Part shown: in pieces, positions 3,595 through 30,642 of the stretch
Numbering within the stretch: the first letter of the stretch is position 1
Layout: every line of letters begins with the position of its first letter
NCBI GenBank assembly: GCA_030748495.1
Contig: JASMLX010000012.1
Location: 1,411 to 65,410, forward strand
From: Candidatus Poribacteria bacterium
GTDB lineage: Bacteria; Poribacteria; WGA-4E; UBA9662
Direction of reading: 5' to 3'
Length of the DNA stretch: 64,000 bases
Made by a program: the position numbers and the translations under genes
Notes under the pieces: model-generated
The model's input: only the letters and a program-made list of their open reading frames with translations
The model's database searches: none
Told to the model about the DNA's origin: nothing

Positions 3595-4884
3595 CTATTT
3601 TTTAATCTCACTCCAGGTTGTTACCAGCTTATTCCTCGAATCGACAGCTAAATTTATCCGTCCGCGTCGAGTACTGAATTTTAAGCCCTTTTCCGTCTGA
3701 GTGTCAAATCCAACAAACATACTCCAACCACCTCCTCGTTCACTAACTTTTACCAGAAGGTGATTATCACCTTTGTTCAGTGAAATATTGAACTTATCCT
3801 GAAAATCGCCTGCACCTCGGTTGGTAGCGTTTCGGTGTACTACTTTACCGTTCAACCAAACTTTAATTGAATCATCACTACCCACAAAGCCAACACCTTG
3901 CCGGCTATTAGGGGAGACAATATTGATATAGGCATAAGAAGAGGTGTCGTTAATATCTCCTTTTCCCAGTTTAATCTTATTCAGGACATCATTGACGTTG
4001 TTTCCTCCTTGTGCAGCAATTTCGCTTTCTTTCCAAGCCAACTTGCCTACTTTTTGGCCTTTTACCGCTCCTAACCTGGCGATTTTTTCCTCTGTTATTC
4101 TTCCTTTACTCGCATCCTTAAGCGAATCGATATCGGTAGATGCTTTACCGCCCTGACCGTTTTGGCAAGGTGCCATCATCCATAGCCAAGGACCTGTAAT
4201 TTTCTTTCCTGCCGTCCCTGCACGAACCGGTTCATTAGCATCCACAGGATTGAGGTTTTCTGCACCATCTCTGGGGTATTTTTTGCCGGCGGCTGCAAAT
4301 TTTCCCGTCATACCCACGAACATACTCCAACCGCCGCCCTGCTCACCAACTTTGACTAGGAGTAAATTCTTACCTTTTTGGACTGCCACCTTGAAATTAT
4401 CCTGGAAATTGCCTGCCCCACGGTTAACGGCATTTCGATGTACCACTTTACCATTCAACCAGACTTTAATTGAATCATCACTGCCAACCTTCATGGTTCT
4501 ATCACCAGCAGCCGCTGCTTCAATTTCGATAAAAGCATAGGCCGCCATATCATTGCAATCACCGTCACAAAAATCAAGGATATTAGCAATTGGATTGATA
4601 TTATTACCTCCAGCGGCAGCGATTTTTGCTCGACTCCAAATTAGTTTTCCGACTTTATCACCAGCTTGAGCACCGTTGTTAGCGATCTTATCTTCCGTCA
4701 CTTGCCCATTGCTTCTAAGCTTAAGTGTGTCTTGATCAACTGCCGCTGCCCCTCCTGCACCATCAATTTTTAGACACATCCATAACCAGGGGCCAACTAT
4801 TTTATCCTGAGCTTGTATTGTGTTAGCACCTGCCAGTAGCAATAATAATAAACATCTCGGAAGAAATACTTTTAAATTCATCAC
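3595..4884 (-). CDS. Exported two-module paralogue (module = GPWLWM...GGNN[VI]N...GSDDSIKVWLNGKVVHRNA.NRGAG.FQD...GGGWSMFVG), C-terminal KLVTTWSEIKK tail
   Basis: Clear signal peptide (LLLLLLAGANTIQAQ). There is an internal tandem duplication of a ~190-aa module that also occurs once in each of the next two genes. The motif pattern looks like a PA14 or galactose-binding-like beta-jelly-roll, but that fold assignment is weak. Confidence 0.85.
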   Translation of the reverse strand: MMNLKVFLPRCLLLLLLAGANTIQAQDKIVGPWLWMCLKIDGAGGAAAVDQDTLKLRSNGQVTEDKIANNGAQAGDKVGKLIWSRAKIAAAGGNNINPIANILDFCDGDCNDMAAYAFIEIEAAAAGDRTMKVGSDDSIKVWLNGKVVHRNAVNRGAGNFQDNFKVAVQKGKNLLLVKVGEQGGGWSMFVGMTGKFAAAGKKYPRDGAENLNPVDANEPVRAGTAGKKITGPWLWMMAPCQNGQGGKASTDIDSLKDASKGRITEEKIARLGAVKGQKVGKLAWKESEIAAQGGNNVNDVLNKIKLGKGDINDTSSYAYINIVSPNSRQGVGFVGSDDSIKVWLNGKVVHRNATNRGAGDFQDKFNISLNKGDNHLLVKVSERGGGWSMFVGFDTQTEKGLKFSTRRGRINLAVDSRNKLVTTWSEIKK

Positions 4885-4923
4885 CTATCAGATCTGCCTC
4901 TGTCTCCAAATTAATTTTAGGTA

Positions 4924-4957
4924 AATAAAAAAGGGATGAAGTCTTATACTTCACCCC
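4924..4957 (-). terminator. Rho-independent terminator downstream of 4987..5691
   Basis: The minus-strand RNA reads GGGGUGAAGU-AUAAG-ACUUCAUCCC followed by UUUUUUAUUU. The stem is 10 bp with one G-U pair. Confidence 0.7.
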
Positions 4958-4986
4958 TCTGAGGCCGAAACGATATCGTTTACTTC

Positions 4987-5691
4987 TTATCTGTTCTGAT
5001 TCTTAATACTCCCCCAACTGGTAGCTAACTTGGACTCGGCTTCAACTGCCAGACCGGCAAACTTGAGGTTGTAAGTCAATTTGGCGTCAATACCGACAAA
5101 CATGCTCCAACCACCACCTTTTTCTGTTACTTTTACCATTAAGACATTATTGCCCTTCTTGAGATCAACGTCAAAGTTATCCTGAAAGTCGCCTGCTCCA
5201 CGGTCTACAGCATTAACATGAACCTCTTTCCCGTTGAACCAGATTTTAAGACCATCATCACTACCCGCTCTGGCAGCAACTCCTTTTTTAGCCGTTTTTG
5301 AAACACAGTTAATAACTGCATACGAACACCAGTTGTTGAGGTCGCCGACCCCAAGCTTCATCTTGAGGACAGCATCATTGACGTTATTACCACCCGCAGG
5401 AGCAATTTTGCCTTTGGTCCATTTGAGTTTGTTCTTGTTTTTGACACTCAGTACCTGTTTGGTGATTCCTCCCTTGGCAACTGTCTTTTCGGTTAATTTT
5501 CCTCCAGTAACTTCTTTAATCCAGTCGTCGTTGGTTACTGCTGCGCCGCCGCCTTTCTTGGCCGTCTCAACGATCATCCAATACCATGGACCTTCTATTT
5601 TATCCTGCGCCTGTGTTAGACTGACGCTTGATGCCAACAACAAAAATAGAATCACTAAAAAAAACTGACTCAAGCTGATAATTTTCTGCAT
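4987..5691 (-). CDS. Exported single-module paralogue of the GPWLWM/GGGWSMFVG family, tail KLATSWGSIKNQNR
   Basis: Signal peptide ending LTQAQ, followed by DKIEGPWYWM. It shares the motifs GGNNVND, GSDDGLKIWFNGKEVH, NAVDRGAGDFQDNF and GGGWSMFVG with its neighbours. Confidence 0.85.
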   Translation of the reverse strand: MQKIISLSQFFLVILFLLLASSVSLTQAQDKIEGPWYWMIVETAKKGGGAAVTNDDWIKEVTGGKLTEKTVAKGGITKQVLSVKNKNKLKWTKGKIAPAGGNNVNDAVLKMKLGVGDLNNWCSYAVINCVSKTAKKGVAARAGSDDGLKIWFNGKEVHVNAVDRGAGDFQDNFDVDLKKGNNVLMVKVTEKGGGWSMFVGIDAKLTYNLKFAGLAVEAESKLATSWGSIKNQNR

Positions 5692-5737
5692 TTCTGTTCC
5701 TTATTTAGTTGCGTTAGTTATTACTTAAAGATCCAAA

Positions 5738-5770
5738 AATAAAAAGGGATGAAGTTTTGTACTTCACCCC
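5738..5770 (-). terminator. Rho-independent terminator downstream of 5803..6462 (paralogous copy of the 4924..4957 hairpin)
   Basis: The stem arms are the same as at 4933-4957 (GGGATGAAGT / ACTTCACCCC on the plus strand), the loop is TTTGT, and a U-tract follows on the minus strand. Confidence 0.7.
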
Positions 5771-5802
5771 TTGGTTCAAAGTGACCGTTTGTATCGGGAG
5801 TA

Positions 5803-6462
5803 CTATCGATTTCTTACTTTAGCCCAGGTAGTAGCGAGCTTATGAGCAGGTTCGACAGCTACGACAGTATAAGTGGTATCAATACCAACAAACATGCTCC
5901 AACCACCACCTTTTTCACCAACTTTTACCAGAAGCCTATTCACACCATCAATCACGTTGACTTTGGCTTTGTCCTGAAAATCACCAGCCCCACGGTTAAC
6001 AGCGTTCTTATGGACGACTTCGCCATTGAGCCAGATTTTGATGGAATCGTCACTACCAGCTTGAAGTTCCACACCTTTTTGCGCTTTAGCTTCAAACTCG
6101 ACATAGGCCCAAGAGTCGTGATCGTTTACATCACCTTTCCCAAGGCCAATTTTTGTAACGAGGTCGTTCACGTTATTTCCACCTGTTGGTGCTAGTTTGC
6201 CCCAAGTCCAGTAAAGGTTGCCACACTTAGCGCCGGCTTTGACACCATTTTTAGCCACACCTTCTTGAGTCTGCGAGCCACCACTGGCCTTTTTAAGGGT
6301 GTCGATATCAGTAGAATCTGCACCACCTTTACCTGCTTCTGTAGGGGCGATCATCCATAGCCATGGACCTTCAATTTTTTTCGGTGCTGCATCAGCCAGC
6401 CCCGCAAACAGGCTTACTGCCAAAAAGCAAGTCAACGCCAAAATAAAAACACTTTTTTTCAT
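5803..6462 (-). CDS. Exported single-module paralogue of the GPWLWM/GGGWSMFVG family, tail KLATTWAKVRNR
   Basis: The ORF track starts at 6570. The internal ATG at 6462 gives a canonical signal peptide (MKKSVFILALTCFLAVSLFAGLADA) and is preceded by AAGGA. The promoter at 6530-6558 lies inside the longer ORF, which argues against the 6570 start. Confidence 0.8.
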   Translation of the reverse strand: MKKSVFILALTCFLAVSLFAGLADAAPKKIEGPWLWMIAPTEAGKGGADSTDIDTLKKASGGSQTQEGVAKNGVKAGAKCGNLYWTWGKLAPTGGNNVNDLVTKIGLGKGDVNDHDSWAYVEFEAKAQKGVELQAGSDDSIKIWLNGEVVHKNAVNRGAGDFQDKAKVNVIDGVNRLLVKVGEKGGGWSMFVGIDTTYTVVAVEPAHKLATTWAKVRNR

Positions 6463-6529
6463 TCTTATATCCTTAAATTTGCTAGAAGTTAGATAGTATT
6501 GATGGATATCACCATCTGCTGCTTGGCCG

Positions 6530-6558
6530 ATTTTAACATGGCTAATTTGTAAAGTCAA
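6530..6558 (-). promoter_or_regulatory. Sigma-70-like promoter for the 6462->3595 array
   Basis: The minus strand reads TTGACT-17 nt-TAAAAT, about 60 nt upstream of the ATG at 6462. Confidence 0.55.
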
Positions 6559-6625
6559 TGAGTTTCCCATTTGCTTTTCAGTCTTGAAATGCCCCCCGCA
6601 TTTTTGACAGGTAGTTAGTAGTATT

Positions 6626-7570
6626 TTAACTTCCCAAAGTCTTACTCTCCAGATTTAACCACTGCATCTCTTTCTCTGTTAATTCAACCCCAACGGCTCC
6701 CAAACTAGAGTTGAGCTCATCCAGGTTGACTGGTCCAAAAATAGGAAAAGTAGGAAAAGGCTGGTGCATGACATAAGCCAAGGCAACCTGAATTGCAGTA
6801 CAGCCTTTCTCCTGCCCTAGTTGTTGAGCTCTATTAAGCCGTTCAAAGTTGTCGTCGGTATAGTAGATGTCGACCACGTGTAAATTGTCAGGCTTATAGG
6901 GACTAAAGTTTCCGCTAAAGAATCCTCTGGCCTGAGAAGACCAGGGAATCAAGGGGAATTGATTCTCATTGTGCCAGTCCCATGCAGCCTGGTCAGTTAG
7001 AAAACAACCGGACCAATGAGGCTTCTTAGCAGCAGCCAAACTAATATTGTTACTGATAGCGATCAATGGATGTTTGTCCGATTGCACTGCGTACTCGTTG
7101 GCCGCTTGAACGCGAGTTGGCGACCAGTTGGAAACTCCAGCAGCAAGGATCCGTCCTCGCCGAATCTCTTGATCCATATAATCTACGACTGTTGAAACAG
7201 GAATTCGCTCATCGTCACGGTGCAAAAGATAGAGATCGAAGTAATCGGTTTGGGTGCGAATCAGAGAAACTTCCAGATCTGCTCGCACCTCCTCCGGCGC
7301 AATTCGAGGACGAGGAACACTGCCGTTGGGGTGACCTCCTTTAGCAATCACAAAGGTTTGACTGCGGTTTTTACGGTGCTTCATCCACTGGCCAAGCACC
7401 CGTTCGCAATCTCCACCGGAATAGATATATGCGGTGTCAAAGGCGTTACCACCGGCCTCACTAAAACGATTAAAGACGCTGTAAGCCCCATCAAGATCAC
7501 CCATGTGAAAGGCCATTGTTCCCAAGACCAGTTGGGAGACATTTCGATCTCCAAGTTGCAGGTATTTCAT
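6626..7570 (-). CDS. Aldo/keto reductase family oxidoreductase
   Basis: AKR-type N-terminus (LGTMAF...FDTAYIYSGG.CE..LG.W) and ~314 aa length. Confidence 0.85.
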   Translation of the reverse strand: MKYLQLGDRNVSQLVLGTMAFHMGDLDGAYSVFNRFSEAGGNAFDTAYIYSGGDCERVLGQWMKHRKNRSQTFVIAKGGHPNGSVPRPRIAPEEVRADLEVSLIRTQTDYFDLYLLHRDDERIPVSTVVDYMDQEIRRGRILAAGVSNWSPTRVQAANEYAVQSDKHPLIAISNNISLAAAKKPHWSGCFLTDQAAWDWHNENQFPLIPWSSQARGFFSGNFSPYKPDNLHVVDIYYTDDNFERLNRAQQLGQEKGCTAIQVALAYVMHQPFPTFPIFGPVNLDELNSSLGAVGVELTEKEMQWLNLESKTLGS

Positions 7571-7808
7571 AGTTTTCTCCTCTGAATTCCAAAAAAGCCG
7601 CCGGTTCGAACGATTACTATAGACGCCATCCGGCTGCTAATCGATTTTGGAAACTTAGCTATCTCGCAGGAATTGGCGACCATTATAGAAAAGGGCAGCA
7701 CAGCATTAAAGATAAAAGATCATCGAGGCCCTTGACTCACTTTAGAGTTCTTCCTGCGCCCCCTTTTTCTCGCAGAAATCAGATCGATGTAGTTAACCTG
7801 TCAATAAA

Positions 7809-8702
7809 TCAAGACTGTCGATTGGACAGGTAAGCGGATAACGCATAATCAAATGGGGTATCGGTGTTAATCTGAACGTAATCGATCATATTGGCACCAC
7901 ACCCTCGTTGATAGTCTCGAATAAACCTGTTAAGTTGTTCAAGGTAACTGGACTTGAGGCTATCTGCTTGCGTTACCAACCGTTGTCCTGTCTCGAGGTC
8001 TTGAAAAGAGATTGCGCCTTGAAAAGGGAAAGTTTTTTCTGCTGAATCGAGAAGGTGAAAGACAATTACTTCGTGCTTTCGATGCCGAAAATGTTTTAAA
8101 GCCGATAGCACTTTGGTCGGCTGATCTAATAAATCAGAGATAACAATCACTAATCCCCGCCGAACAATCCGCTTTGCCAGATCGTGTAATACTGTTGCCA
8201 CATCTGTTTCTGCACCAGCGGTGATCGACTCCAGTATTGAGATAATCGCCTGCAAATGGGTTGGGACGCCACGAGGTGGAATGTAGTCACGGATCTGTTG
8301 GTCGAATGTGGCTAACCCAACCGAGTCACGCTGTTTCAGCATCAAATAGGTCAGAGAAGCAGCCAGGTAGCAACCGTACTGTAATTTACTAATACCGCTA
8401 CCATCAAATTGGTAGGTCATCGACTGGCTGGCATCTAGAACCAAATAGACCCGTAAGTTGGTCTCTTCTTCAAATTTCTTGACGTAGTACCGGTCTGACT
8501 TACCAAAAACCTTCCAGTCGATGTGGCGAATCTCATCACCCGGCATGTACTGGCGGTGCTCCGAGAACTCGACACTGAACCCTTGATAGGGACTTTTATG
8601 TAGTCCCGTCACAAAACCTTCGACTACCAACCGGGCGACCAGTTCCAGATTCCCCAACCGGGAAAGTGCGACCGGATCTAAATAGTGATGTTTGGTTTGC
8701 AT
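7809..8702 (-). CDS. DUF58 family protein (vWA-like, usually MoxR-associated)
   Basis: HKSPYQGFSVEFSEHRQYMPGDEIRHIDWKVFGKSDRYYVKKFEEETN is the DUF58 signature region. Confidence 0.85.
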   Translation of the reverse strand: MQTKHHYLDPVALSRLGNLELVARLVVEGFVTGLHKSPYQGFSVEFSEHRQYMPGDEIRHIDWKVFGKSDRYYVKKFEEETNLRVYLVLDASQSMTYQFDGSGISKLQYGCYLAASLTYLMLKQRDSVGLATFDQQIRDYIPPRGVPTHLQAIISILESITAGAETDVATVLHDLAKRIVRRGLVIVISDLLDQPTKVLSALKHFRHRKHEVIVFHLLDSAEKTFPFQGAISFQDLETGQRLVTQADSLKSSYLEQLNRFIRDYQRGCGANMIDYVQINTDTPFDYALSAYLSNRQS

Positions 8703-8729
8703 CTAATTATCCGAGTTATCTGAGGCTGA

Positions 8730-9470
8730 TCATTGTTGATATTGTGTCATCGGGACAAACCGAACACCACCGTAAGATTTCTTCACCAGTTTTCTTTCCA
8801 ATTTGGTAATCTGTAATAAATCCTGTTTAGTCTTACCAATCGGCAAAACGATTTTCCCGCCTATCTCCAGCTGATCAATCAGCCGATCAGGTAACGTCGG
8901 TGGGGCTGCGGTAACAATAATTCGATCAAACGGCGCCTGATGTTCCCACCCTGAATAGCCATTTCCGACCTTCCTCTCAATGTTTTGATAATTTAGATCT
9001 GTTAATCGTTTCCACGCTTGTTGCGCCAAGTTGTCGATAATTTCGACGGTATAGACCTGCTCAACGATCTCGGCCAGGACTGCCGTCTGGTAGCCACAAC
9101 CGGTGCCGATCTCCAATACCCGAGATTCAGGTTGTAGATCTAGCAACTCCGTCATTAAAGCGACAATGTAAGGTTGGGAGATGGTCTGTTCAAATCCAAT
9201 AGGGTAAGCTTGATCGTTATAAGCCTCGGACCGGTATTCCGGTAACATGAACAGGTGACGTGGCACACGCTGCATGGCAGTCAAGACTGACTTCGACCGG
9301 ATCCCCCGGTTGTAGATCTGTCGTTGCACCATCTGCTGTCTCGGTTTTTGGAAGTGGTCTTGATGGGAGTGGTGAGATGACTTCAATAGTTCTAGCGTAG
9401 AGGGGGAGAAAAAGTTTTGTAAAGTTGCCTTGATTCGAAATTGAGGGGTAGGCTTTGAATCACGTTTCAC
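8730..9470 (-). CDS. pcm: Protein-L-isoaspartate O-methyltransferase
   Basis: VL.AM..VPRH.F, TISQPYIVALM and the SAM motif VLEIGTGCGYQTAVLA are present. The start could instead be the internal ATG at 9332. Confidence 0.85.
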   Translation of the reverse strand: MKRDSKPTPQFRIKATLQNFFSPSTLELLKSSHHSHQDHFQKPRQQMVQRQIYNRGIRSKSVLTAMQRVPRHLFMLPEYRSEAYNDQAYPIGFEQTISQPYIVALMTELLDLQPESRVLEIGTGCGYQTAVLAEIVEQVYTVEIIDNLAQQAWKRLTDLNYQNIERKVGNGYSGWEHQAPFDRIIVTAAPPTLPDRLIDQLEIGGKIVLPIGKTKQDLLQITKLERKLVKKSYGGVRFVPMTQYQQ

Positions 9471-11846
9471 TTACTTGCCTAATCTAAGCTCGTATGGCGT
9501 CAGTGACCATAGGTAATTATATCGCAAACGATGAAGTAGCGTAGACGTATTCTCCCTCCAATCTGATCGGTTAGCAATAGACCTTAACCACCCCCCCAAG
9601 AAAGACGATTTAGGCGAAATCCGTTCTATCTCAGTTTCATTCGGGTCTAGTTTGGCCAGTTGATGTGCAACCAGAATTGCATCCGCTTCACCGCCAAGTT
9701 GATCGACTAAACCGTTTTCCAGAGCCTGACGACCAGACCAGATTCTACCTTGTGCCACTTTATCTACTGCTTCTACCGACAAGTTTCGACCGTTTGCGAC
9801 TTTCCATACAAAATCATCATAGATTTCTTCAACATCGGTAGTCAACTGCTGACGCTGTGCCCCGGTTGATTTATGGTGTATACTCCAAAGATCAGCGTTT
9901 CGCCCTCGTTTCAGGATCTGGTGATTAATTCCCAATTTTTGGTAAAATCCATCTACCACCGGCTTCATACCAAAAACACCGATTGATCCGGTAATGGTAC
10001 CGGGGTTAGCCAAAATCCGATCAGCGGGGGCGGCGATGTAGTATCCGCCAGAAGCTGCGGTATCTGCCATGGAGACTACCAAAGTCTTTTCCTCTTTCAA
10101 CTGAATGAGTTTCTGCCAGATAATATCAGCCGCCAACACCGATCCGCCGCCACTATCAATACGAAGCACTACCGCCTTGACCGATGGGTCTTCCGTCACC
10201 GATTTTACCGCTGCCGAAATCGTATCTGCCCCCATAATGGATTGTCCAAAAAACGGATCAGCCCAACTTTCACCTGTCATCATGTTACCGTGAGCTTCAA
10301 TCACCGCCACCTTTGGTTTCGGCAATTGCCAATCGTAATCCAATTGATTGTAGTAAACGCCAGTCTCCAGTTTCTCCGCTTGAAATAGCTCTTCTAGCTG
10401 ATGGCGGGTAACAATTTTATCCACCACTTTATTTTCTACAGCACGCTGAGCGGTATAAGGACCGTTGTCGATCAGTGTCTTGATCTCTTCTACAGATTTG
10501 CCACGGCCTTCAGCCACGGCCTGAGTCAGTTGATCGTATAGATCATCCAGCACGGTCGTTAAAGACTCGCGGTGTGCATCGGACATTTGGACTCCTGTAA
10601 ACGACTCTGGCGCGTTTTTGTACTTCCCAACCTTCAGCACTTCGACTTCGATCCCCAGTTGATCTAGTAGCTGACGATAGAATGAGACCTCGAACCGAAG
10701 GCCAATTAGATCAACCGTACTGGAAGAGTGTATCAGTATCTGGTGACAGGCACTGGCTAATAGATAGTTGCCGGTCGAGCAATCTCCCTCCAGATAGGCG
10801 TACATTTTCTTATCCTGTTCCTGAAAATGGAGAATCTTTTGTCGCAACTCCTGTATCTCTCCAAATCCCAGGTTGGAGGACCCAAAACGAATGAGTGCCC
10901 CCTGGATTCGTGGATCTTCGCTGGCAGAATGGAGGAGGTCTCCAATTTCCTCTGCTTTTAGATCCAGGTAAAATCGACGACGAATAGGTTTGGTCTTAAA
11001 CGCTTGGGTGAAATTGAGAAATCCAACGCTTTCTGTTTCTGTTGCACGACCGGTTGACGTCGAGATAGGCCGATAAGCTCCAAACCCAAACTGTGCCAAG
11101 TTGATCTGAAACTGAAAGGCGTAGCCGTCCGGCGTCAAACCAGCTTTTAGGATCAACGGGTCTACAGGTCGTACCTCCAATCCCAAGAGAAGATGGTTTA
11201 AAAGCTGGTAGTTAATACTTTTGTTGAAAATATCTTTCCCTACTTGCCAATCGCAAGAGAGCGTCATCCTGGAAGTGCCTGGACGAATAGCGAAGCCAAG
11301 ATCCAATGATCTCCCAAAATTCGGATCGTTGCTTTCGCCAACGTGGTTGCTTCTAAGAAAGTGAGGGGTAGATGAGTTGCGGTTAAGGTCTCGTGCTACC
11401 ATACCAAAGGATAAAAACCTTCGCCGGTAGAGAGCCCCCAGCGACCAAGATCGATCAGAGGTATCCTTTTTGACCCTACTCCAACCATAACTTACGCCCA
11501 AAGAAAAGCTAGATCCAAGCGAGAATCCACTAGCGACAGTGTAACGCTCAAAACCGTTTACACCGCCCAGGCCTTCTACTGAAAAGCCAGAATTGGGGGT
11601 GGCAAGGAAAAATGCCTGGTTACTGCGTTTAATAGGTTGGTTCTGAGAAGAACGCAGATAGTGTAAATCCAGGGTTTGATTGTGGCTAAGACCGGCTGGA
11701 TTAAAAAAGGAAGCCAACGCATTGTCACTGCTGGCAACGGAAGTTTCCGGTAAGGCAATACCAACCTGTGGCTGAGAGATACCGATAGAGGTCACAATCG
11801 ACCCTGCCCAAATAGAAAAGTATAACCCCCAAATATAAGTTCTCAT
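9471..11846 (-). CDS. sppA: Signal peptide peptidase SppA (two S49 domains) with ~290-aa beta-rich N-terminal extension
   Basis: Two S49 halves are visible: IRFGSSNLGFGEIQELR...GNYLLASAC, and LRIDSGGGSVLAADIIW...ASGGYYIAAPAD...GSIGVFG. The N-terminal region has a signal peptide and alternating porin-like strands, including an NPAGL motif. Confidence 0.8.
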   Translation of the reverse strand: MRTYIWGLYFSIWAGSIVTSIGISQPQVGIALPETSVASSDNALASFFNPAGLSHNQTLDLHYLRSSQNQPIKRSNQAFFLATPNSGFSVEGLGGVNGFERYTVASGFSLGSSFSLGVSYGWSRVKKDTSDRSWSLGALYRRRFLSFGMVARDLNRNSSTPHFLRSNHVGESNDPNFGRSLDLGFAIRPGTSRMTLSCDWQVGKDIFNKSINYQLLNHLLLGLEVRPVDPLILKAGLTPDGYAFQFQINLAQFGFGAYRPISTSTGRATETESVGFLNFTQAFKTKPIRRRFYLDLKAEEIGDLLHSASEDPRIQGALIRFGSSNLGFGEIQELRQKILHFQEQDKKMYAYLEGDCSTGNYLLASACHQILIHSSSTVDLIGLRFEVSFYRQLLDQLGIEVEVLKVGKYKNAPESFTGVQMSDAHRESLTTVLDDLYDQLTQAVAEGRGKSVEEIKTLIDNGPYTAQRAVENKVVDKIVTRHQLEELFQAEKLETGVYYNQLDYDWQLPKPKVAVIEAHGNMMTGESWADPFFGQSIMGADTISAAVKSVTEDPSVKAVVLRIDSGGGSVLAADIIWQKLIQLKEEKTLVVSMADTAASGGYYIAAPADRILANPGTITGSIGVFGMKPVVDGFYQKLGINHQILKRGRNADLWSIHHKSTGAQRQQLTTDVEEIYDDFVWKVANGRNLSVEAVDKVAQGRIWSGRQALENGLVDQLGGEADAILVAHQLAKLDPNETEIERISPKSSFLGGWLRSIANRSDWRENTSTLLHRLRYNYLWSLTPYELRLGK

Positions 11847-12142
11847 TCCGACGACGCTTATCTTCGATGAATCCGATGGAGTGGTTAAGGCTCCAGCTAT
11901 TTTCCTCTCGGTTGGAGATATGTTATCATTTGAAAATAGCGATTACCAAACTTTCAGCCATCCAACTTTGACGCCAATGAATTTACTCGTATTGCCCTTT
12001 TTTAGGTTACGGTTTCCAATTGGTACGAGTGCCAAGGCGAGGCAGGCGCCGAGTGGCTGGAAGTTTCACTCCGCCCGAGACAAGCATCTCCCTAACAAGT
12101 TCCCGCCAAAACAAGTCGAGTTAAACTAACTAAGGAGGAACT

Positions 12143-12925: not shown

Positions 12926-12982
12926 ATACAAAAGAGTCATAGAACATTAGGAACCTGACCGATCAGATCCGATTAGCGTCTT

Positions 12983-15406: not shown

Positions 15407-15442
15407 ACTTCTTACTTCACGCTTCCAATCTAAAATTCGGGT

Positions 15443-16234: not shown

Positions 16235-16267
16235 GATCTAAACGACTCTCGATGGGGAAAGCATGTC

Positions 16268-18253: not shown

Positions 18254-18347
18254 ACTGAATAGTTCTTGACGGTTAAAATATCATTAATGTCTGAATTTTG
18301 ATACAGAGATTAACACACTAAGCAAGCGGTGTCAACACTTAAATCGT

Positions 18348-19013: not shown

Positions 19014-19112
19014 AGATCCCTCGCAACTATTATTTTATTTATTATTGTTCTTTTCGCGTACCTATGCTACAATCAGCCAAAAGCCCATTTATTAACCACC
19101 CTGCCAAATAGC

Positions 19113-21856: not shown

Positions 21857-21874
21857 ACAGATACTAATCCAAAA

Positions 21875-22828: not shown

Positions 22829-22864
22829 TTTTCAAATGTAAGTCTTTTTTGGAGGAACAACTGT

Positions 22865-23860: not shown

Positions 23861-23935
23861 TCGGGTTCCCACTCAGCAAGCTGACAGATCTACACCTACT
23901 CATCTACACCTAATCACTGTACAAAGGAGAATGAC

Positions 23936-24874
23936 TTGAAACTGTTTTCTGGATTAATGGGCATGGTCATCTGTTCTAACTTAGTCTGGGCTGGTTTGGC
24001 TGAGAGGCTAGGCTACGACGAGCAGGCTAAAATACTGATCATCCACGCCGATGACGCTGGCATGTGTCACTCTGTCAATCAGGCTACCTTAACTGCCATG
24101 AAGGAAGGAGCAGTTACTTCGGCTGCTGCCATGGTTCCTCCGGCTTGGTTCCCGGAGATGGCTTCCTGGGCTAGGGCAAATCCGGAACTGGACTTGGGCT
24201 TACACCTGACCTTAACTAGCGAATGGAAGCATTACCGGTGGCAACCAGTAGCGGATCCAAGTCTGGTTCCCGGTCTGATTGACGAGGAAGGGTTCATGTG
24301 GCGGTCTGTGGCCGAGGTCGTCGCCAACGCGACCCCAGCCGAAATCGAAACAGAAATCAGAGCCCAAATCGACCGTGCTATTGCTTTTGGGATAAACCCG
24401 ACTCACGTCGACACCCACATGGGAACGCTTTTTGCCACGCCCGAATTCTTATCGATTTATCTCAAAACAGCAATGGACTACGGTATTCCGCCGATGATGC
24501 CAGATCCAAACGCACCACAGGTCAAACAGCTAATGGCTGCGAGAGGACTACAATATCCCGAAACATTACTCGATCGCCTGGTGGCTCTGGGTATACCGCT
24601 ACTCGATTCTCTGAATACCGGTGAAGAGGGAGATACCTATCAGGAACGAAAAACCGCCTACCACGAGGCTATTCGAGGCCTTCAGCCTGGCGTCACAGAA
24701 ATTATCGTCCACCTTTCTGGAGAGGATCAAGAGATCCGCCATATTTCTAACAGCTGGCAAGCACGAAACCATGAGTTTCTTATTTTTACCGACTCAGACA
24801 CGATTGCGCTAATTGAGTCACTTGGTATCCACCTGATCGGCTGGCAAGAGATTAAAGATCTAATTCAGAAATAA
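23936..24874 (+). CDS. YdjC/ChbG family carbohydrate deacetylase with signal peptide
   Basis: LIIHADDAGMCHSVNQA and THVDTHMG motifs. TTG start after AAGGAGA. Confidence 0.8.
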   Translation: MKLFSGLMGMVICSNLVWAGLAERLGYDEQAKILIIHADDAGMCHSVNQATLTAMKEGAVTSAAAMVPPAWFPEMASWARANPELDLGLHLTLTSEWKHYRWQPVADPSLVPGLIDEEGFMWRSVAEVVANATPAEIETEIRAQIDRAIAFGINPTHVDTHMGTLFATPEFLSIYLKTAMDYGIPPMMPDPNAPQVKQLMAARGLQYPETLLDRLVALGIPLLDSLNTGEEGDTYQERKTAYHEAIRGLQPGVTEIIVHLSGEDQEIRHISNSWQARNHEFLIFTDSDTIALIESLGIHLIGWQEIKDLIQK

Positions 24875-24899
24875 AACAAAATAAAATAAAATAAAATAA
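24872..24899. repeat. Pentanucleotide microsatellite (YAAAA)x5
   Basis: The sequence reads TAAAA CAAAA TAAAA TAAAA TAAAA TAA. Its first three nt are the stop codon of 23936..24874. Confidence 0.9.
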
Positions 24900-24924
24900 T
24901 AGTAAAAGGCCACTAGATAAAGTG

Positions 24925-24953
24925 TTGACTATTTGATTCAATTTTGTTAGGCT
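24925..24953 (+). promoter_or_regulatory. Sigma-70-like promoter upstream of the first LamG gene
   Basis: TTGACT-17 nt-TAGGCT, about 45 nt upstream of the ATG at 24997. Confidence 0.35.
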
Positions 24954-24996
24954 ATCTAATTGAGTCCATTTGAAAGATTAAGAAGGAGTATGAAAA

Positions 24997-25803
24997 ATGA
25001 GTAAACGTTTCCGGTTGGTCTTCGCTAGCCTGTCTTTACTGCTACTCTTAGCTGTTTTACCAGGTCAAACTAAGGTCAAAAACTTGAAAGATTCGGCTGT
25101 CGGCATCTGGTTATTTGAAGGTGATGCTCAAGATGCGAGCGGCAACAACAATCACGGCACACTTGAAAAAGGGGCCACCTTCAGCGATAGCGGAAAAGTT
25201 GGCAAAGCCTTGAGCCTGGATGGCAAAGATGATTACGTGAGCGTGAAATCCTCTTCCAGCCTGGATAGCGCGGCCAAACAGGCCACCATCATGGCTTGGA
25301 TCAAATTTGATAAACCGGGTAAGCAGCGTAATCAGTGTTGTTTCGACGATCAATTTGTTGTTGGTTACGTTGGATGGAAAAACCTCCTCAATGTTTTCGG
25401 TGCCGGTCGCAACACCAATCAGGGAAAAGTAGAGATTGGTAGCGGTCAACTAAAGCCGAGTTGGAGTTCTAGTCCCAAAAGTGTCAACGATAACAAATGG
25501 CACCATCTGGCCTTTGCTTACGACGGCAAGAAGAAACTTCTCTATATCGATGGAGAAGTTGATATTGATAAGGCGGCCACTGGTGAATTCGGTGTCAAAG
25601 GAGTTAATGTGATTATCGGTGGCGCGGTTACTGAGCGCTTTGCCATGGGTCTAATTGACGAAGTGGCTATATTTAATACCGCCTTAACTGCTAATGACGT
25701 CAAGGGAATTATCAAAGGCGGAATGGCTAGTGTGCTAGGAACCACCGCCGTTTCACCCAAGGGCCGACTGACCACCACCTGGTCTTCAATCAAATCCCAA
25801 TAA
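24997..25803 (+). CDS. Exported LamG/concanavalin-A-like jelly-roll protein (pair A, member 1), tail RLTTTWSSIKSQ
   Basis: Signal peptide present. LamG_3-type motifs are W.FEGD..D.SGNNN.G, GK.GKALSLDGKDDYV, WHHLAFAYDGKK..LYIDG and GLIDEVAIFN.AL. Confidence 0.85.
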   Translation: MSKRFRLVFASLSLLLLLAVLPGQTKVKNLKDSAVGIWLFEGDAQDASGNNNHGTLEKGATFSDSGKVGKALSLDGKDDYVSVKSSSSLDSAAKQATIMAWIKFDKPGKQRNQCCFDDQFVVGYVGWKNLLNVFGAGRNTNQGKVEIGSGQLKPSWSSSPKSVNDNKWHHLAFAYDGKKKLLYIDGEVDIDKAATGEFGVKGVNVIIGGAVTERFAMGLIDEVAIFNTALTANDVKGIIKGGMASVLGTTAVSPKGRLTTTWSSIKSQ

Positions 25804-25811
25804 GATCCCCA

Positions 25812-25847
25812 GATGAAGTGTTCCCATAACGATGGGAACACTTCATC
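25812..25847 (+). terminator. 16-bp perfect hairpin after the first LamG gene (terminator-like, no U-tract)
   Basis: GATGAAGTGTTCCCAT-AACG-ATGGGAACACTTCATC, beginning 9 nt after the stop codon. Confidence 0.5.
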
Positions 25848-25892
25848 CTACGTATGTAGCCTAACTGCAGAGAAATAGGAGAATAACATAAA

Positions 25893-26696
25893 ATGAAGTT
25901 ACGCCTATTAAAACTTCAGATCTACTTACTAATTTTGGTCTTGATTGGTTCTATTCAAAGCTATGGTGCCATTGATCCCAAAACAGCGGTCGCCGTTTGG
26001 CTGTTTGAAGGAGATCTCAAGGACGGTACAGAAAATAATAATAGCGGTAAATTCAAAAATGGAGCCAAAATTGCCGATGGGGGAAAATTTGGCAAAGCCT
26101 TGAGCCTAGATGGGAAAGACGATTACGTGGTGGTTGCCCCTTCAAAAAGCCTGGAGAGTTCAGACGAAAAGTATACCGGTACCGCCTGGGTTAAACTGGA
26201 TAAGCCTGGCAAGCAGCGCAACGATTGCTGTTTTGACGACCAGTTTATTGTCGGTTGGGTACCTGGCTGGCATAATATCGTCAATGTTTTTGGTGCTGGC
26301 CGCAATGCCAATCAAGGGAAAGTCGAGATTGGCAGTAATGAATTGAATCCACGATGGAGTTTTAGCCCTAAAAGTGTCAATGATGGCAAGTGGCATCATC
26401 TGGCCTTTGCTTATACTGGTAAGAAAAAGATCCTCTATATCGATGGAGTTGCCGATATCGATAGAGCCGCCACCGGTATTTTTGGTGTCAAAGGATTTGA
26501 GGTTACCATCGGTGGGGCAATTACAGAGAGATTTGCCATGGGTCTGATCGATGATGTTGGGATTTTTAACGTAGCGCTCTCCAAAGCTGATGTTAAAACA
26601 GTAATGGACAAAGGGTTAGGCCGGTCACTAGGGATACTACCTGTTATGCCTAAGAATCAATTGACAACCGTCTGGGCTAGAATCAAATCCAACTAA
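25893..26696 (+). CDS. Exported LamG-like protein (pair A, member 2), tail QLTTVWARIKSN
   Basis: Collinear with 24997..25803 and, by eye, identical at about two-thirds of positions. The unusual KPGKQRN.CCFDDQF segment is shared. Confidence 0.85.
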   Translation: MKLRLLKLQIYLLILVLIGSIQSYGAIDPKTAVAVWLFEGDLKDGTENNNSGKFKNGAKIADGGKFGKALSLDGKDDYVVVAPSKSLESSDEKYTGTAWVKLDKPGKQRNDCCFDDQFIVGWVPGWHNIVNVFGAGRNANQGKVEIGSNELNPRWSFSPKSVNDGKWHHLAFAYTGKKKILYIDGVADIDRAATGIFGVKGFEVTIGGAITERFAMGLIDDVGIFNVALSKADVKTVMDKGLGRSLGILPVMPKNQLTTVWARIKSN

Positions 26697-26938
26697 CCCA
26701 CCCGTACTAACAACTACCCATATTTTCTCAGCCCCCCATAAAAGACTGTCTGGCCGTTAGATAGCCCTATTAGGAACGGGTCAGAACGAGAATCCAGATA
26801 ACAGCATCCCGGTTAGCAACCAAGGCACTCTATTTTGACTTTCTTGGGGGTTTATATGTTATTATTTGCCGAGGTAGTCAGATTGCGTTCAACCATTTGC
26901 TGCTAAACGGTAGTGTTTGTAGGCCGTGAGTTTGTAAC

Positions 26939-27104
26939 TATTCGCTTTAGCTTTGATTTAGCAAGGAGCATTTTCCGCTCTTACACTAAAGTTATGAATT
27001 TCACCAGCGAGTAAAACGCCCGTACCTCTGTTTATACGATCTCTACGAGCAGATTGTGTAAGGATGATCCGATCTCAATTTGATTTATAAGGAGAGTTGT
27101 TTCA
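26939..27104 (+). promoter_or_regulatory. Conserved ~165-nt 5' leader, copy 1 (upstream of 27105)
   Basis: It shares blocks with 28779..28943: CTATTCG.TTTAG.TTTGATTTAGC, GCATTTTCCGCTCTTA and TGTG.AAGGATGATCCGATCTCAATTT.ATTT..AAGGAGA..TGTTTCAATG. Confidence 0.6.
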
Positions 27105-27926
27105 ATGCTACACCCTTTCACTATGAAAATTTCAAAGGCTGTTTTCTTCGTTTCACTAATCTGTTTTGTTGCTCACATTAGCTGTAATCAAGCTGAAGCC
27201 GGCATCAAGGCCGGTATTACCAAAGAGGATATTGTTGCCCTCTGGCTGTTTGACGACAGCTCTGGTGACACCTTAAAAGATTCGTCCGGAAATGGTAACG
27301 ACGGTAAATTAATCGAAGGTCCAACTTGGGACAAAGGTAAGTTCGGCGGTGCACTCAAGTTCGACGCCAACAAGAAACAGCGGGTCAAGGTCGAAAATAG
27401 TGATTCCTTAAACTTAACCGATCAAGTCAGTATTCTGGCCTGGGGATTGGTCAGTGATACAACCGGCAACCGCCGCTTTCTGCAAAAATCGACCGAAGGG
27501 TCGGATAACCAATATCGGTTGTTGCGTGAAGGTGGTTTCTTCCGCTTCGATGCAGGACCAGGTGTCAGCAATAGCCGCGTCCAATCGCCGATGTTCAAGG
27601 AAAAAGAGTGGCACCACGTAGCAGGTGTCTATGATGGCAAGACAACCGCCATCTATATCGATGCGAAACAAACAGCTTCGCAAGAATCGACGGGTAAGAT
27701 GAAGCCTTCCGATGGCCCACTGTTTATTGGTACCAAGCATCCGGGAGCCCCAAATGGTGACTACTGGATGGGTATGATTGACGAAGTAGCAATTATTAAT
27801 CGAGCCGTGACGACGACAGAATTGGCCCAAGCCATGAAAGGGTTTGGCCAGATTCTAAATACCACGGCCGTTGGTGCTGCAGGTAAAATGGCAACCACTT
27901 GGGGACAAATTAAATCTTCTTACTAG
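27105..27926 (+). CDS. Exported LamG-like protein (pair B, member 1), tail KMATTWGQIKSSY
   Basis: Signal peptide present. Motifs include LWLFDDSSGDTLKDSSGNGNDGKLIEGPTWDKGKFGGALKF, WHHVAGVYDGKT.AIYID and MIDEVAIINRA. Confidence 0.85.
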   Translation: MLHPFTMKISKAVFFVSLICFVAHISCNQAEAGIKAGITKEDIVALWLFDDSSGDTLKDSSGNGNDGKLIEGPTWDKGKFGGALKFDANKKQRVKVENSDSLNLTDQVSILAWGLVSDTTGNRRFLQKSTEGSDNQYRLLREGGFFRFDAGPGVSNSRVQSPMFKEKEWHHVAGVYDGKTTAIYIDAKQTASQESTGKMKPSDGPLFIGTKHPGAPNGDYWMGMIDEVAIINRAVTTTELAQAMKGFGQILNTTAVGAAGKMATTWGQIKSSY

Positions 27927-27944
27927 AAGTTTCTTGTCAGATAA

Positions 27945-28721
27945 ATGCGAAAACGTAATTTAGGATTGCTGGTTTTCTGTTTGTTGGTTCTTATCACTGT
28001 CAACGGTGGTGCAAAAATTAAGAAGGGGGAGATTGTAGCCCTCTGGCTGTTTAATGATGGATCCGGTAAAACACTGAAAGATTCATCGGGTAACGGCAAT
28101 CATGGCAAACTGATCGAAGGTCCAACCTGGGACAAGGGTAAGTTCGGTGGTGCGCTCAAGTTTAACTCGGGCAAACGACAGCGGGTCAAGGTTGAAAATG
28201 CTGATTCCTTGAATTTGACTGACCAAATTAGCATTTTAGCCTGGGGACTGGTCAGCGATACAACCGGCAACCGTCGGTTCGTCCAAAAATCGACCGAAGG
28301 ATCAGACAACCAATACCGTTTACTCCGAGAAGGAGGGTTCTTTCGTTTCGATGCGGGGCCAGGTGTCAGCAATAGTCGAGTCCAATGTCCGATGTTTAAG
28401 GAAAAAGAGTGGCATCACGTAGCCGGAATCTACAATGGTAAAACCACCGCCCTTTACATCGATGGCAAACAGGCAGCGGAGCAAAAATCGACGGGTAAAA
28501 TGGTGCCTTCGACGGGGCCACTGTTTATCGGCACCAAGCATCCTGGCGCGCCGGAAGGCGACTACTGGAATGGTCTGATCGATGAGGTCGCCATCATCAA
28601 TCGAGCTGTGACGACGGTAGAATTGGCCCAGGCTATGAAGGGGTTTGCATCGGTGATGCCAGTCGATGCCAGTGGCAAAATCGCTATTACCTGGGGACGG
28701 CTCAAAACCGATTATCACTAA
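27945..28721 (+). CDS. Exported LamG-like protein (pair B, member 2), tail KIAITWGRLKTDYH
   Basis: Most positions are identical to 27105..27926 at protein level, while many third-codon positions differ at DNA level. Confidence 0.85.
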   Translation: MRKRNLGLLVFCLLVLITVNGGAKIKKGEIVALWLFNDGSGKTLKDSSGNGNHGKLIEGPTWDKGKFGGALKFNSGKRQRVKVENADSLNLTDQISILAWGLVSDTTGNRRFVQKSTEGSDNQYRLLREGGFFRFDAGPGVSNSRVQCPMFKEKEWHHVAGIYNGKTTALYIDGKQAAEQKSTGKMVPSTGPLFIGTKHPGAPEGDYWNGLIDEVAIINRAVTTVELAQAMKGFASVMPVDASGKIAITWGRLKTDYH

Positions 28722-28778
28722 AGTATCCAGTTTCGTCAAGCTGTCCTTACCATCGTATTGGGATATTAGGAACTGTGC

Positions 28779-28943
28779 CTATTCGTTTTAGTTTTGATTT
28801 AGCGGAGCGCATTTTCCGCTCTTAACTAATATGATTTTTACTCAGTGGATATGATGCGCATATATCCGTTAACGGACATCTCCATGCGCGATCTGTGCAA
28901 GGATGATCCGATCTCAATTTAATTTGCAAGGAGAAATGTTTCA
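28779..28943 (+). promoter_or_regulatory. Conserved ~165-nt 5' leader, copy 2 (upstream of 28944)
   Basis: See 26939..27104. This copy also contains a 6-bp stem AGCGGA/TCCGCT and a GGATAT/ATATCC stem. Confidence 0.6.
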
Positions 28944-29723
28944 ATGTCACACTTTAAAAAACCAATTCTAACTGTACTGGCCTTGGTGGTTATTGTTGTT
29001 TCTCAGTCCTGGGCTGGACTCAGCGTTTACTACGATTTTGAGGGAATTGATAATGGTTACATTCTAGATAAATCTGGAAATGGTATTGACGGAGAGATTG
29101 TCGGTGACGTAACGTTGGACGATGGTCAACTTGGTAAAGCTGGACGATTCGCCAACGGCGGTTACCTGGATTTAGATGGAGCTAACGTTCCGCCTGCTTT
29201 AATTCCGACTCAAGGCTTTAGTGTTCTGGCTTGGGTAAACGTCGAGGTTGATGGTGATCAAGCCATTTTCTGTGCCAGATCTGCTGATACACAGTGGTTG
29301 GTCCATCCAGAGGTCCGGCCCGGTGGAGGTTACTATCGTTGGACAGTCCGAACGGACAAACCGGGCGGCACCATTGGCGAAGTCAAAAAAGGGGTGCCGG
29401 TCAAAAACGAATGGCACCATTTCGCCGGCACCTATAATGCGGGTGATGGGGTCGCCGTTCTCTACGTTGACGGAGAAGAGGTTGGTCGAGATCAGCGTGA
29501 CGGTGGCACCGTTAATAAAAGCTGGGGACTTGGAGCCCGAGTAGGATTGAATATCGACGACGCTCGACCGTTCAACGGCCGAATGGATGAAGTCGCCATC
29601 TGGTCCGAAGCACTTACGCAAGCCAAAATCAAAGAGTATATGGCTGACGGTGTTTTGGCCAAGACGGCCGTCGAAGCGCAGCACAAATTAGCCACTACCT
29701 GGGCTAATATCAAAAACAGGTAA
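28944..29723 (+). CDS. Exported LamG-like protein (pair C, member 1), tail KLATTWANIKNR
   Basis: Signal peptide present. Motifs include DKSGNGIDGEI, LGKAGRFANGGYLDLDG, WHHFAGTY, LYVDGEEVG and GRMDEVAIWSEALT. Confidence 0.85.
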   Translation: MSHFKKPILTVLALVVIVVSQSWAGLSVYYDFEGIDNGYILDKSGNGIDGEIVGDVTLDDGQLGKAGRFANGGYLDLDGANVPPALIPTQGFSVLAWVNVEVDGDQAIFCARSADTQWLVHPEVRPGGGYYRWTVRTDKPGGTIGEVKKGVPVKNEWHHFAGTYNAGDGVAVLYVDGEEVGRDQRDGGTVNKSWGLGARVGLNIDDARPFNGRMDEVAIWSEALTQAKIKEYMADGVLAKTAVEAQHKLATTWANIKNR

Positions 29724-29844
29724 CTCCCTTTCAGATGCAGGTATTAATATGGTCGGAGTATTCGCTTATACTTTCGCCGTTGGTATCTGCATCTATTTCA
29801 ATACTATAAACGTGATCCGGCGTTATTTCGCTAGGAGAAATAAA

Positions 29845-30642
29845 GTGAAAGAAATACAGTTAAAATTTGTATCTTATTGTTTAATCCTGTTGGCCCTGAC
29901 AGTAACAATTTCTGTCCCAAGCTGGGCCGAGGAAAAAGACCTGATTCTCTACTTCGACTACGAAGATTTCAAAGGCGGCGAGGTGGTAGAGAAATCTATC
30001 AGCAAGCGAAATGGCAAAATCGAAGGGAAAGTTGTCCAGGTTGATAACGGCAAGTTTGGTAAGGCCGGTAAATTTGCGGCTGGTAGTTTTCTAGACCTGG
30101 ATGGCGCCACCTTTCCCAAAGATAATATTCCCACCAAGGCCTGGAGCCTCCTGGCCTGGATTAATGTGGAGGCTATTAGCGACATGGCCATTTTCAATGC
30201 TCGATCTAGTGAGCCGGTTTGGCTGATTCACCCTGAAGCTAGAGGTGGTGGAAACTATCGCTGGTTACTAAGGGGTAATGGAAACACAAAGTTGTTCGAT
30301 ATCAGAGCCGGTAAGAATAAGGCCAATGCATGGCAACATTACGCTGGTATTTTTAATGGGAAAAAGGGGATTCTCTACATCAATGGCAATGAAGTCGGTG
30401 CACAAGATGCCGGAGCAAAGAGTTCCTCCACTGACTGGGGGTTAGGAGCCAGAGTTGGATTTAATATCGATGACAACCGTCCCTTTACCGGCTTGATGGA
30501 TGATCTCAACATCTGGAAAAAAGCGCTGACTCAGGACGAAATAAAGGCCATTATGAATGATGGCGTGGAGACCTTCCTATCGGTCGAGGCTCACGGTAAA
30601 CTGACCACTCAATGGTCGAAGATTAAAGCCCACCACCAGTAA
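29845..30642 (+). CDS. Exported LamG-like protein (pair C, member 2), tail KLTTQWSKIKAHHQ
   Basis: The ORF track starts at 29749. The in-frame GTG at 29845 follows AGGAGA by 6 nt and gives a normal signal peptide (KEIQLKFVSYCLILLALTVTISVPSWA). The protein is collinear with 28944..29723. Confidence 0.8.
   Translation: MKEIQLKFVSYCLILLALTVTISVPSWAEEKDLILYFDYEDFKGGEVVEKSISKRNGKIEGKVVQVDNGKFGKAGKFAAGSFLDLDGATFPKDNIPTKAWSLLAWINVEAISDMAIFNARSSEPVWLIHPEARGGGNYRWLLRGNGNTKLFDIRAGKNKANAWQHYAGIFNGKKGILYINGNEVGAQDAGAKSSSTDWGLGARVGFNIDDNRPFTGLMDDLNIWKKALTQDEIKAIMNDGVETFLSVEAHGKLTTQWSKIKAHHQ

Follow-up and report, generated by a model that had tools for sequence, protein, structure and literature searches.

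Nine exported proteins with a common end

The window, by which we mean the whole stretch of 64,000 nt analysed here, lies on contig JASMLX010000012.1 of a Candidatus Poribacteria bacterium, and the element in question is a short peptide tail that terminates the products of nine of its genes. Three of these genes encode exported PA14/GH2-N-like proteins and six encode exported LamG proteins. All nine open reading frames (ORFs), with the tails quoted for them in the original prediction, were recovered by an ORF check and a six-frame search. Each gene ends with the core motif [LMI][ATV][TI][TSQV]W[GAS]x[ILV][KR], which is located 1–4 residues ahead of the stop codon. When the regular expression [LMIV][ATVS][TISV][TSQV]W[GASC].[ILVM][KR] was applied to the entire 64 kb in six-frame translation, it matched exactly at the nine gene ends and nowhere internally; 0.06 matches per window are expected by chance (mean of 300 shuffles). 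A hidden Markov model (HMM) of the tail found no genuine copy in the window beyond the nine. The genes and their tails are as follows.

3595–4884, minus strand: gene for an exported protein of 429 aa with two tandem PA14/GH2-N-like modules and the tail at its end; tail VDSRNKLVTTWSEIKK at 3598–3645, minus strand
4987–5691, minus strand: gene for an exported PA14/GH2-N-like protein of 234 aa; tail VEAESKLATSWGSIKNQNR at 4990–5046, minus strand, with a predicted local distance difference test score (pLDDT) below 50 from residue 219 in the AlphaFold2 (AF2) model
5803–6570, minus strand: gene for an exported PA14/GH2-N-like protein whose true start is likely internal (MKKSVFIL...), which gives the 219 aa called on other contigs; tail VEPAHKLATTWAKVRNR at 5806–5856, minus strand
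24997–25803, plus strand: gene for an exported LamG (Laminin_G_3) protein of 268 aa; tail VSPKGRLTTTWSSIKSQ at 25750–25800, plus strand
25893–26696, plus strand: gene for an exported LamG protein of 267 aa; tail VMPKNQLTTVWARIKSN at 26643–26693, plus strand
27105–27926, plus strand: gene for an exported LamG protein of 273 aa; tail VGAAGKMATTWGQIKSSY at 27870–27923, plus strand
27945–28721, plus strand: gene for an exported LamG protein of 258 aa; tail VDASGKIAITWGRLKTDYH at 28662–28718, plus strand
28944–29723, plus strand: gene for an exported LamG protein of 259 aa; tail VEAQHKLATTWANIKNR at 29670–29720, plus strand, with pLDDT below 50 over residues 242–259
29749–30642, plus strand: gene for an exported LamG protein (ORF of 297 aa) with a signal peptide after an internal start near VKEIQLKFVSY...; tail VEAHGKLTTQWSKIKAHHQ at 30583–30639, plus strand

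Pfam assigned Laminin_G_3 to six of the nine bodies (E 1e-20 to 1e-27) and gave no significant match for the remaining three (3595–4884, 4987–5691 and 5803–6570), and BLAST detected no link between the LamG and the PA14/GH2-N-like group. The two folds had been called unrelated; their assignment to different superfamilies is borne out by BLAST, Pfam and the AF2 models, but the wording was slightly overstated in that both are lectin-type beta-sandwiches. On inspection, all nine proteins begin with basic residues and continue into a hydrophobic segment, as is typical for Sec signal peptides and as had been predicted, provided that an internal start codon is used in 5803–6570 and 29749–30642. The protein encoded at 3595–4884 is itself the product of an internal tandem duplication, with the GPWLWM...GGGWSMFVG unit present twice in one polypeptide that carries a single terminal tail. 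The database entry 'hypothetical protein CMK12_06830 [Candidatus Poribacteria bacterium]' is 100% identical to the product of 4987–5691. Further copies of the region are found on marine contigs, those of TARA among them, and the window belongs to a pelagic Poribacteria genome.

Sequence, distribution and carriers of the tail

An alignment of 183 tails on their invariant tryptophan defines the conserved unit as [LTA][APS]-V-[EDS]-P-x-[GD]-K-L-[TA]-T-T-W-[GA]-x-I-K. Conservation spans positions −13 to +4 around this tryptophan and fades upstream of −13. The short 'AVEA/AVEP' stretch that had been noticed ahead of the motif is real and indeed stronger than claimed, with valine at −10 in 177 and proline at −8 in 135 of the 183 tails, two positions for which the search pattern did not select. 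Behind the unit come 1–6 residues, among which R, S, Q, K and N abound. R and K occur most often in this short stretch, but many tails have polar residues there in place of basic ones. Of the 183 tails, 114 terminate in R, Q or K and 18 in an aromatic residue (Y, F or W). In a six-frame search of 1.02 Mb the tail HMM gave 186 good matches, every one of which lay within 12 aa of a stop codon and none internally, in line with the strictly C-terminal position that had been proposed.

At the DNA level, all synonymous codons are used at the conserved positions, including all six leucine codons, and there is no conservation downstream of the stop codon. Selection therefore acts at the protein level and not on a DNA or RNA element. 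A rare variant with serine after the tryptophan (WSxIK) is present in three of the nine tails of the window (3598–3645, 25750–25800 and 30583–30639, with both body families represented) as compared with three of 174 elsewhere (Fisher p = 0.0015). The tag may have drifted in this lineage in particular, which is what one would expect if a single partner were shared by all tails of a genome.

The distribution of the tail was assessed with a degenerate DNA pattern for KL[AT]TTW[GAS..]xIK in 185,579 genomes, one per species of bacteria or archaea, a scan for which about 13 chance matches were estimated. At least 120 loci were found, from 82 assemblies among the matches listed, and all but about a dozen of the loci or assemblies among those listed are labelled Candidatus Poribacteria. 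The match sits 1–6 codons ahead of a stop codon in 129 of 130 cases among those listed. The tag is thus specific to the phylum Candidatus Poribacteria. When 1.84 billion protein cluster representatives (50% identity) were searched exhaustively with HMMER, at least 200 of them reached E ≤ 0.001, and 138 of the best 150 have the motif at their C-terminus. The 63-position profile used for this search is biased to upstream sequence of the DUF1080 type, so that 200 clusters must be taken as a minimum and this type is over-represented among the best matches. A further homology search with the tail alignment returned only 18 short candidates, all of them gene fragments and uninformative.

Once stripped of the tail, the carrier proteins form 19 groups that are not linked by BLAST. 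Pfam matches among them comprise Laminin_G_3, 3keto-disac_hyd/DUF1080 (3-keto-disaccharide hydrolase), F5/8 type C (discoidin), NedA-like galactose-binding and HmuY domains; the PA14/GH2-N-like family and several groups without a Pfam match come in addition. The tail is therefore found on at least ten bodies that are distinct by BLAST and Pfam, which agrees with its description as a portable module. Signal peptides were judged by simple heuristics and inspection. A conservative test that accepted only ATG starts detected a signal-peptide-like N-terminus on at least 145 of 171 carriers, and most of the others show the same feature behind alternative start codons. As no carrier among the 171 clearly lacks an export signal, the tag is tied to the envelope. 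The lipobox cysteine of bacterial lipoproteins is not a feature of the carriers, of which only five of 171 have a possible lipobox. HmuY of Porphyromonas gingivalis is an outer-membrane lipoprotein; no lipobox was seen on inspection of the tailed HmuY-like sequence L012. With a median length of 263 aa (5th–95th percentile, 215–288 aa), the carriers are mostly non-catalytic, small beta-sandwich binding proteins.

The tail in relation to fold and to known C-terminal signals

The AF2 model of the LamG protein encoded at 28944–29723 has a predicted template modelling score of 0.82 and a domain with pLDDT above 90 up to residue 239, after which confidence is lost over the tail. The model of the PA14-like product of 4987–5691, which resembles GH2 N-terminal sugar-binding and PA14 domains, has a mean pLDDT of 81 and falls below 50 at residues 219–234. 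Neither modelled domain needs the tail to be complete, and both are predicted with confidence in its absence. Five LamG homologs of the 28944–29723 product (P0047, P0051–P0053 and P0055; 39–47% identity), one of them labelled Planctomycetes, end without a tail at ...ILEIMQGM, directly after the last LamG helix. In another homolog, P0056, TSP3 repeats are followed by a C-terminal hydrophobic helix and RR where the tail would sit. The tail is thus an add-on at a site at which one relative has a terminus of the classical membrane-anchor type. Structure prediction of both families had been named as a check, and the AF2 models of the two folds together with the tail-less LamG homologs, which end just before the tail, argue strongly against its being an integral last strand. 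As judged from these models, the tail is predicted to be unpacked and dispensable for the fold.

Matches of the tail profile away from C-termini were confined to repeat proteins, namely WD40 blades (VAVTPDGRLAISAS...TLKVW) and VAVDPxGRATVVW repeats. Blades of beta-propellers follow the pattern strand, tight turn, strand. The composition of the tail, with its beta-branched T-T-T run, a P-x-G-K turn and a glycine after the tryptophan, would fit a beta-hairpin. Proteins P0216, P0227, P0244 and P0323 contain five to nine PQVAVDPxGRATVVW... repeats in a sequence of high-G+C-type (Ala-, Arg- and Gly-rich) composition. These repeats score weakly as the Pfam domain Hia_Tpr_ring_dom (Trp-ring-like), a resemblance at the level of the motif only. 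A search of the Protein Data Bank with the tail profile yielded only VSPKGKLATT at residues 7–16 of 8dj2_A ('Adhesin'; E 0.12), which was dismissed as a ten-residue coincidence; a literature search retrieved no paper on this entry.

No C-terminal model of NCBIfam release 20 or Pfam was matched, either by the full proteins (NCBIfam E ≤ 1) or by isolated 30-aa tails (E ≤ 10). Full-text literature searches returned nothing on the motif strings of the tail, nor on Poribacteria in connection with sorting, exosortase or type IX secretion (T9SS). In databases the proteins are called only 'LamG domain-containing' or 'hypothetical'. The motif is apparently undescribed, and neither its confinement to a single phylum nor its occurrence on many protein families seems to have been reported before. 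The statement in the original prediction that the tail corresponds to no known sorting signal is thus upheld by Pfam, NCBIfam and the literature alike. None of the three findings which it had named as fatal was made: the tail is no integral strand, it is enriched at C-termini, and it matches no catalogued domain. While the tail is of the broad kind of C-terminal recognition tags of exported proteins, it does not show the features that define any of the known C-terminal signals open to examination, and we file it under none of them.

With sortase-type tags (LPXTG/sortase, PEP-CTERM/exosortase, GlyGly-CTERM/rhombosortase, MYXO-CTERM/myxosortase and PGF-CTERM/archaeosortase) the tail shares its shortness, its extreme C-terminal position and its Sec-exported carriers. 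Further points in common are the many copies per genome (nine in 64 kb) on unrelated bodies within one lineage, the order of a signature (V-E-P...), a second element and residues that are partly basic, and a many-to-one arrangement with the partner encoded elsewhere. Unlike these tags, the tail has no transmembrane helix, is matched by none of their HMMs and has no sortase-like partner within the window or the 8-kb neighbourhoods of 120 loci. The absence of a hydrophobic helix, as had been claimed, is plain from the sequence, which has eight residues between two lysines and no hydrophobic run. Its V-E-P resembles the (V)PEP signature only loosely.

A T9SS-type C-terminal domain (CTD) is present in the window itself, on a giant protein encoded at 60586–63972 (minus strand) whose gene runs off the window end. 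Its C-terminal NYPNPFNPETWIPYQL... domain is of the T9SS type-A/FlgD-Ig type and scores 22.0 bits against TIGR04183, just under the cutoff of 23 bits. Like the tail, T9SS type A CTDs are C-terminal, have no membrane helix, reside on Sec-exported proteins and are found in the same genomes; they are recognized in the periplasm or at the outer membrane, where recognition of the tail would also take place. They are, however, folded Ig-like domains of 70–100 aa on large multidomain proteins (500–1100 aa in related loci), whereas the tail is a unit of 16–20 aa without sequence match to them on small single-domain proteins of 215–290 aa; that the tail is far shorter than such a CTD had been pointed out correctly. 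Many such CTDs were reported in Poribacteria, and no structural genes of the Por/T9SS machinery were found there (Kamke et al. 2014, PMC3909097). A possible kinship with the N-terminal part of the CTD was considered and discarded, as it consisted of a loose similarity in spacing among eight sequences, too weak to be used.

The beta-signal of outer membrane proteins, which is read by BamA/BamD, resembles the tail as we picture it in being a short C-terminal beta-strand motif that acts after Sec by beta-augmentation. That signal forms the final strand of a beta-barrel in the membrane and ends on an aromatic residue. The tail is attached to soluble beta-sandwiches, and its tryptophan is followed by G-x-I-K and 1–6 further residues that mostly end in R, Q or K; the carriers are thus not transmembrane beta-barrels with an aromatic end, as substrates of the barrel assembly machinery are. 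Nor does the tail resemble the donor strands of chaperone-usher or type V pili, given that the domains are complete without it and the bodies differ in fold. The T4 fibritin foldon and the cohesin–dockerin pair are comparable in that they are portable, linker-borne C-terminal modules by which carbohydrate-active modules are assembled or docked. The foldon has 27 aa and dockerin about 70 aa with calcium-binding repeats, neither shows sequence kinship to the tail, and they are not tied to the Sec-exported proteins of one phylum, as the tail is.

Gene neighbourhoods and possible functions of the tail

All ORFs in the 8-kb neighbourhoods of 120 loci were clustered in a search for a partner gene. 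Frequent neighbours of tail genes encode PhyH, Gfo/Idh/MocA and sulfatase proteins, which are families expanded across Poribacteria generally. Neither an usher or chaperone gene nor a recurring gene for a glycosyltransferase or other modifying enzyme was found in these neighbourhoods, and the 64 kb of the window contain no PorU, PorV, Sov or PorKLMN, no sortase, exosortase or rhombosortase and no other sorting machinery. At 12 of 14 loci a gene for a secreted TPR protein lies 18–230 bp downstream of a tail gene on the same strand, and it is often followed by a gene for an FG-GAP/UnbV_ASPIC propeller protein. The tail genes concerned span three body families (LamG, DUF1080 and PA14-like). The cassette is present at the following loci.

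TPR (-FG-GAP/UnbV_ASPIC) cassette next to a tail gene: L035, L041, L053, L069, L071, L080, L087, L097, L104, L112, L116 and L118

The cassette accompanies a minority of the tail genes, about 12 of about 176, in three to four independent contexts, and it is possible that it represents a functional partner or a cargo context. The window has an FG-GAP/UnbV_ASPIC gene of its own (45241–47055, plus strand, within 44662–48524, plus strand) with no adjoining tail gene. An ORF of 192 aa without Pfam match lies ahead of it, and a Tricorn/PD40 propeller gene (47052–48524) comes next. The window also encodes a BBP2 barrel at 39720–40730. As a separate observation, a gene for a PhyH (phytanoyl-CoA dioxygenase-like) protein starts 3 bp past the stop codon of the tail gene at L045, L055, L060, L067 and L073, a spacing that suggests that the exported lectin-like protein and the cytoplasmic dioxygenase are translationally coupled.

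Taking into account these data, we tentatively propose, and give it a little less than an even chance, that the tail acts as a portable recognition tag, about 16 residues long, and that a single envelope partner common to the carriers reads it once they have been exported by Sec, so as to sort or tether them. The tag has the consensus a-V-E-P-x-G-K-L-T-T-T-W-G-x-I-K plus 1–6 polar or basic residues and sits on a flexible linker at the extreme C-terminus. Sec export and cleavage of the signal peptide would leave the tail free, and it would probably fold into a strand-turn-strand hairpin with its turn in the region V-x-P-x-G-K. The hairpin could then be bound through beta-sheet augmentation by a single partner encoded elsewhere in the genome, which would sort or tether the lectin-like modules to the outer membrane or the cell surface. 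Hairpin conformation, shared partner and envelope sorting or tethering are the parts of this scheme that we infer. The logic of a many-to-one sorting signal fits best because the tail is strictly C-terminal, portable, confined to exported carriers, conserved throughout the phylum, present in many copies per genome and not packed on its carrier. The more far-reaching version of this proposal, an undescribed post-Sec pathway of Poribacteria in which a non-hydrophobic 16-residue hairpin tag is recognized by a phylum-specific envelope receptor or translocon for surface export or tethering of a lectin-like repertoire, is conceivable, although we would place it at only about one chance among three.

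Several observations weigh against the sorting or tethering proposal. Neither the window nor the 8-kb surroundings of the 120 loci contain a gene of sortase, protease or secretin type that accompanies tail genes in general, and to our knowledge every sortase-type C-terminal signal has a membrane helix, which the tail does not. AF2 returned low-confidence coil with a short helix for the tail and no hairpin. Family-specific forms of the tail exist, such as ...NLKRF on DUF1080 proteins and KLAAKWAEVKSSY on a 230-aa family, and as these are inherited vertically, co-variation of the tails within a genome is weak. A few matches occur in bins labelled 'uncultured bacterium', in one sponge-derived bin labelled 'Pseudomonadota' and in one labelled 'Deltaproteobacteria'. 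Finally, most of these findings could be accounted for by a hairpin that self-assembles and needs no receptor. Such a hairpin could act like a foldon in making homo- or hetero-oligomers, or like a minimal dockerin in attaching the carriers to a scaffold or enzyme, for instance a beta-propeller, with no translocation involved. T4 fibritin provides a precedent, its foldon being a 27-aa C-terminal, tryptophan-containing hairpin that trimerizes. In keeping with an assembly tag, the tail follows a flexible linker at the extreme C-terminus and is free in the monomer models, the carriers are single binding modules that would gain avidity by oligomerization, and tandem paralog arrays share the tail (in the window, one of six LamG genes and one of three PA14-like genes). 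The lack of a dedicated processing gene in the neighbourhoods, the TPR and FG-GAP/UnbV_ASPIC genes directly downstream in 12 loci of three body families, and a resemblance, at motif level only, to hairpins around symmetry axes (WD40 blades and the Trp-ring-like VAVDPxGRATVVW repeats) point the same way. Generic oligomerization should, however, not be limited to exported proteins, and essentially all carriers have signal peptides; one motif over 19 body groups and 82 assemblies fits a common partner better than many self-interactions, the link to the TPR/ASPIC cassette concerns few of the tail genes, and sixteen residues are fewer than in any autonomous oligomerization fold that we know of. We therefore rate assembly or docking as rather unlikely, while regarding it as the main competitor of the sorting or tethering proposal.

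The remaining explanations carry far less weight. It is improbable that the tail is a derived or minimized version of a known signal that is still served by its pathway, be it a degenerate PEP-CTERM handled by an exosortase or the stub of a T9SS CTD. The V-E-P (compare V-P-E-P) ten residues ahead of the tryptophan, the enrichment of R and K at the very end and the hydrophobic helix plus RR at the equivalent site of P0056 could be read as traces of the former. The many TIGR04183-like CTDs of Poribacteria, including that of the giant protein at 60586–63972, and a loose parallel between CTD N-termini (P-x-[EQ]-T-x-L-L-x-N-Y-P; n = 8) and P-x-G-K-L-T-T-T-W-G could be read as traces of the latter. 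Against this stand a tail that cannot span a membrane, the absence of PEP-CTERM, TIGR04183 or any other NCBIfam or Pfam matches to isolated tails even at E ≤ 10, the size gap between 16–20 aa and the roughly 70–90 aa of a CTD with conservation gone upstream of −13, the different sizes of the carriers, and the reported absence of Por/T9SS structural genes. Quite improbable, too, is a role in processing, modification or turnover, in which the tail would be the site of a periplasmic protease (as a degron or a PDZ-protease ligand) or of threonine glycosylation or tryptophan or lysine modification. Its invariant tryptophan, T-T-T run and conserved lysines, accessible and unstructured in the models, would suit such a role, but ligands of PDZ or tail-specific proteases are the last three to four residues of a protein, whereas the tail end varies in both sequence and length (1–6 residues). 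Moreover, no modifying enzyme recurs beside the tail genes, and there is no obvious purpose for a degron carried by hundreds of exported binding proteins that are abundant. Very improbable, lastly, is that the tail is the last strand of a hidden common fold or the by-product of a conserved DNA element or of gene conversion at the 3' ends of genes. All carriers are beta-rich, and many tail genes lie in tandem arrays that are open to gene conversion; yet the tail is unpacked in two AF2 folds, LamG homologs that lack it are complete, the bodies fall into different Pfam families and superfamilies, third codon positions and all six leucine codons vary freely, and the DNA past the stop codon is unconserved.

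Poribacteria are dominant uncultured symbionts of sponges and have free-living marine relatives. A single tag on at least 200 protein clusters offers a computational handle on a whole class of their exported binding proteins and may serve as bait for finding the partner. The motif merits a curated model, by which proteins now called 'hypothetical' or 'LamG domain-containing' could be annotated consistently. If the tail is an assembly tag, it would be a natural 16-residue module that makes lectin domains multivalent. If it is a sorting signal, the grammar of bacterial C-terminal signals would extend to a short tag without a membrane helix. Should a new pathway be involved, the tail would represent a new class of C-terminal sorting signals, through which lectin-like proteins of Poribacteria would meet sponge or algal glycans at the cell surface.

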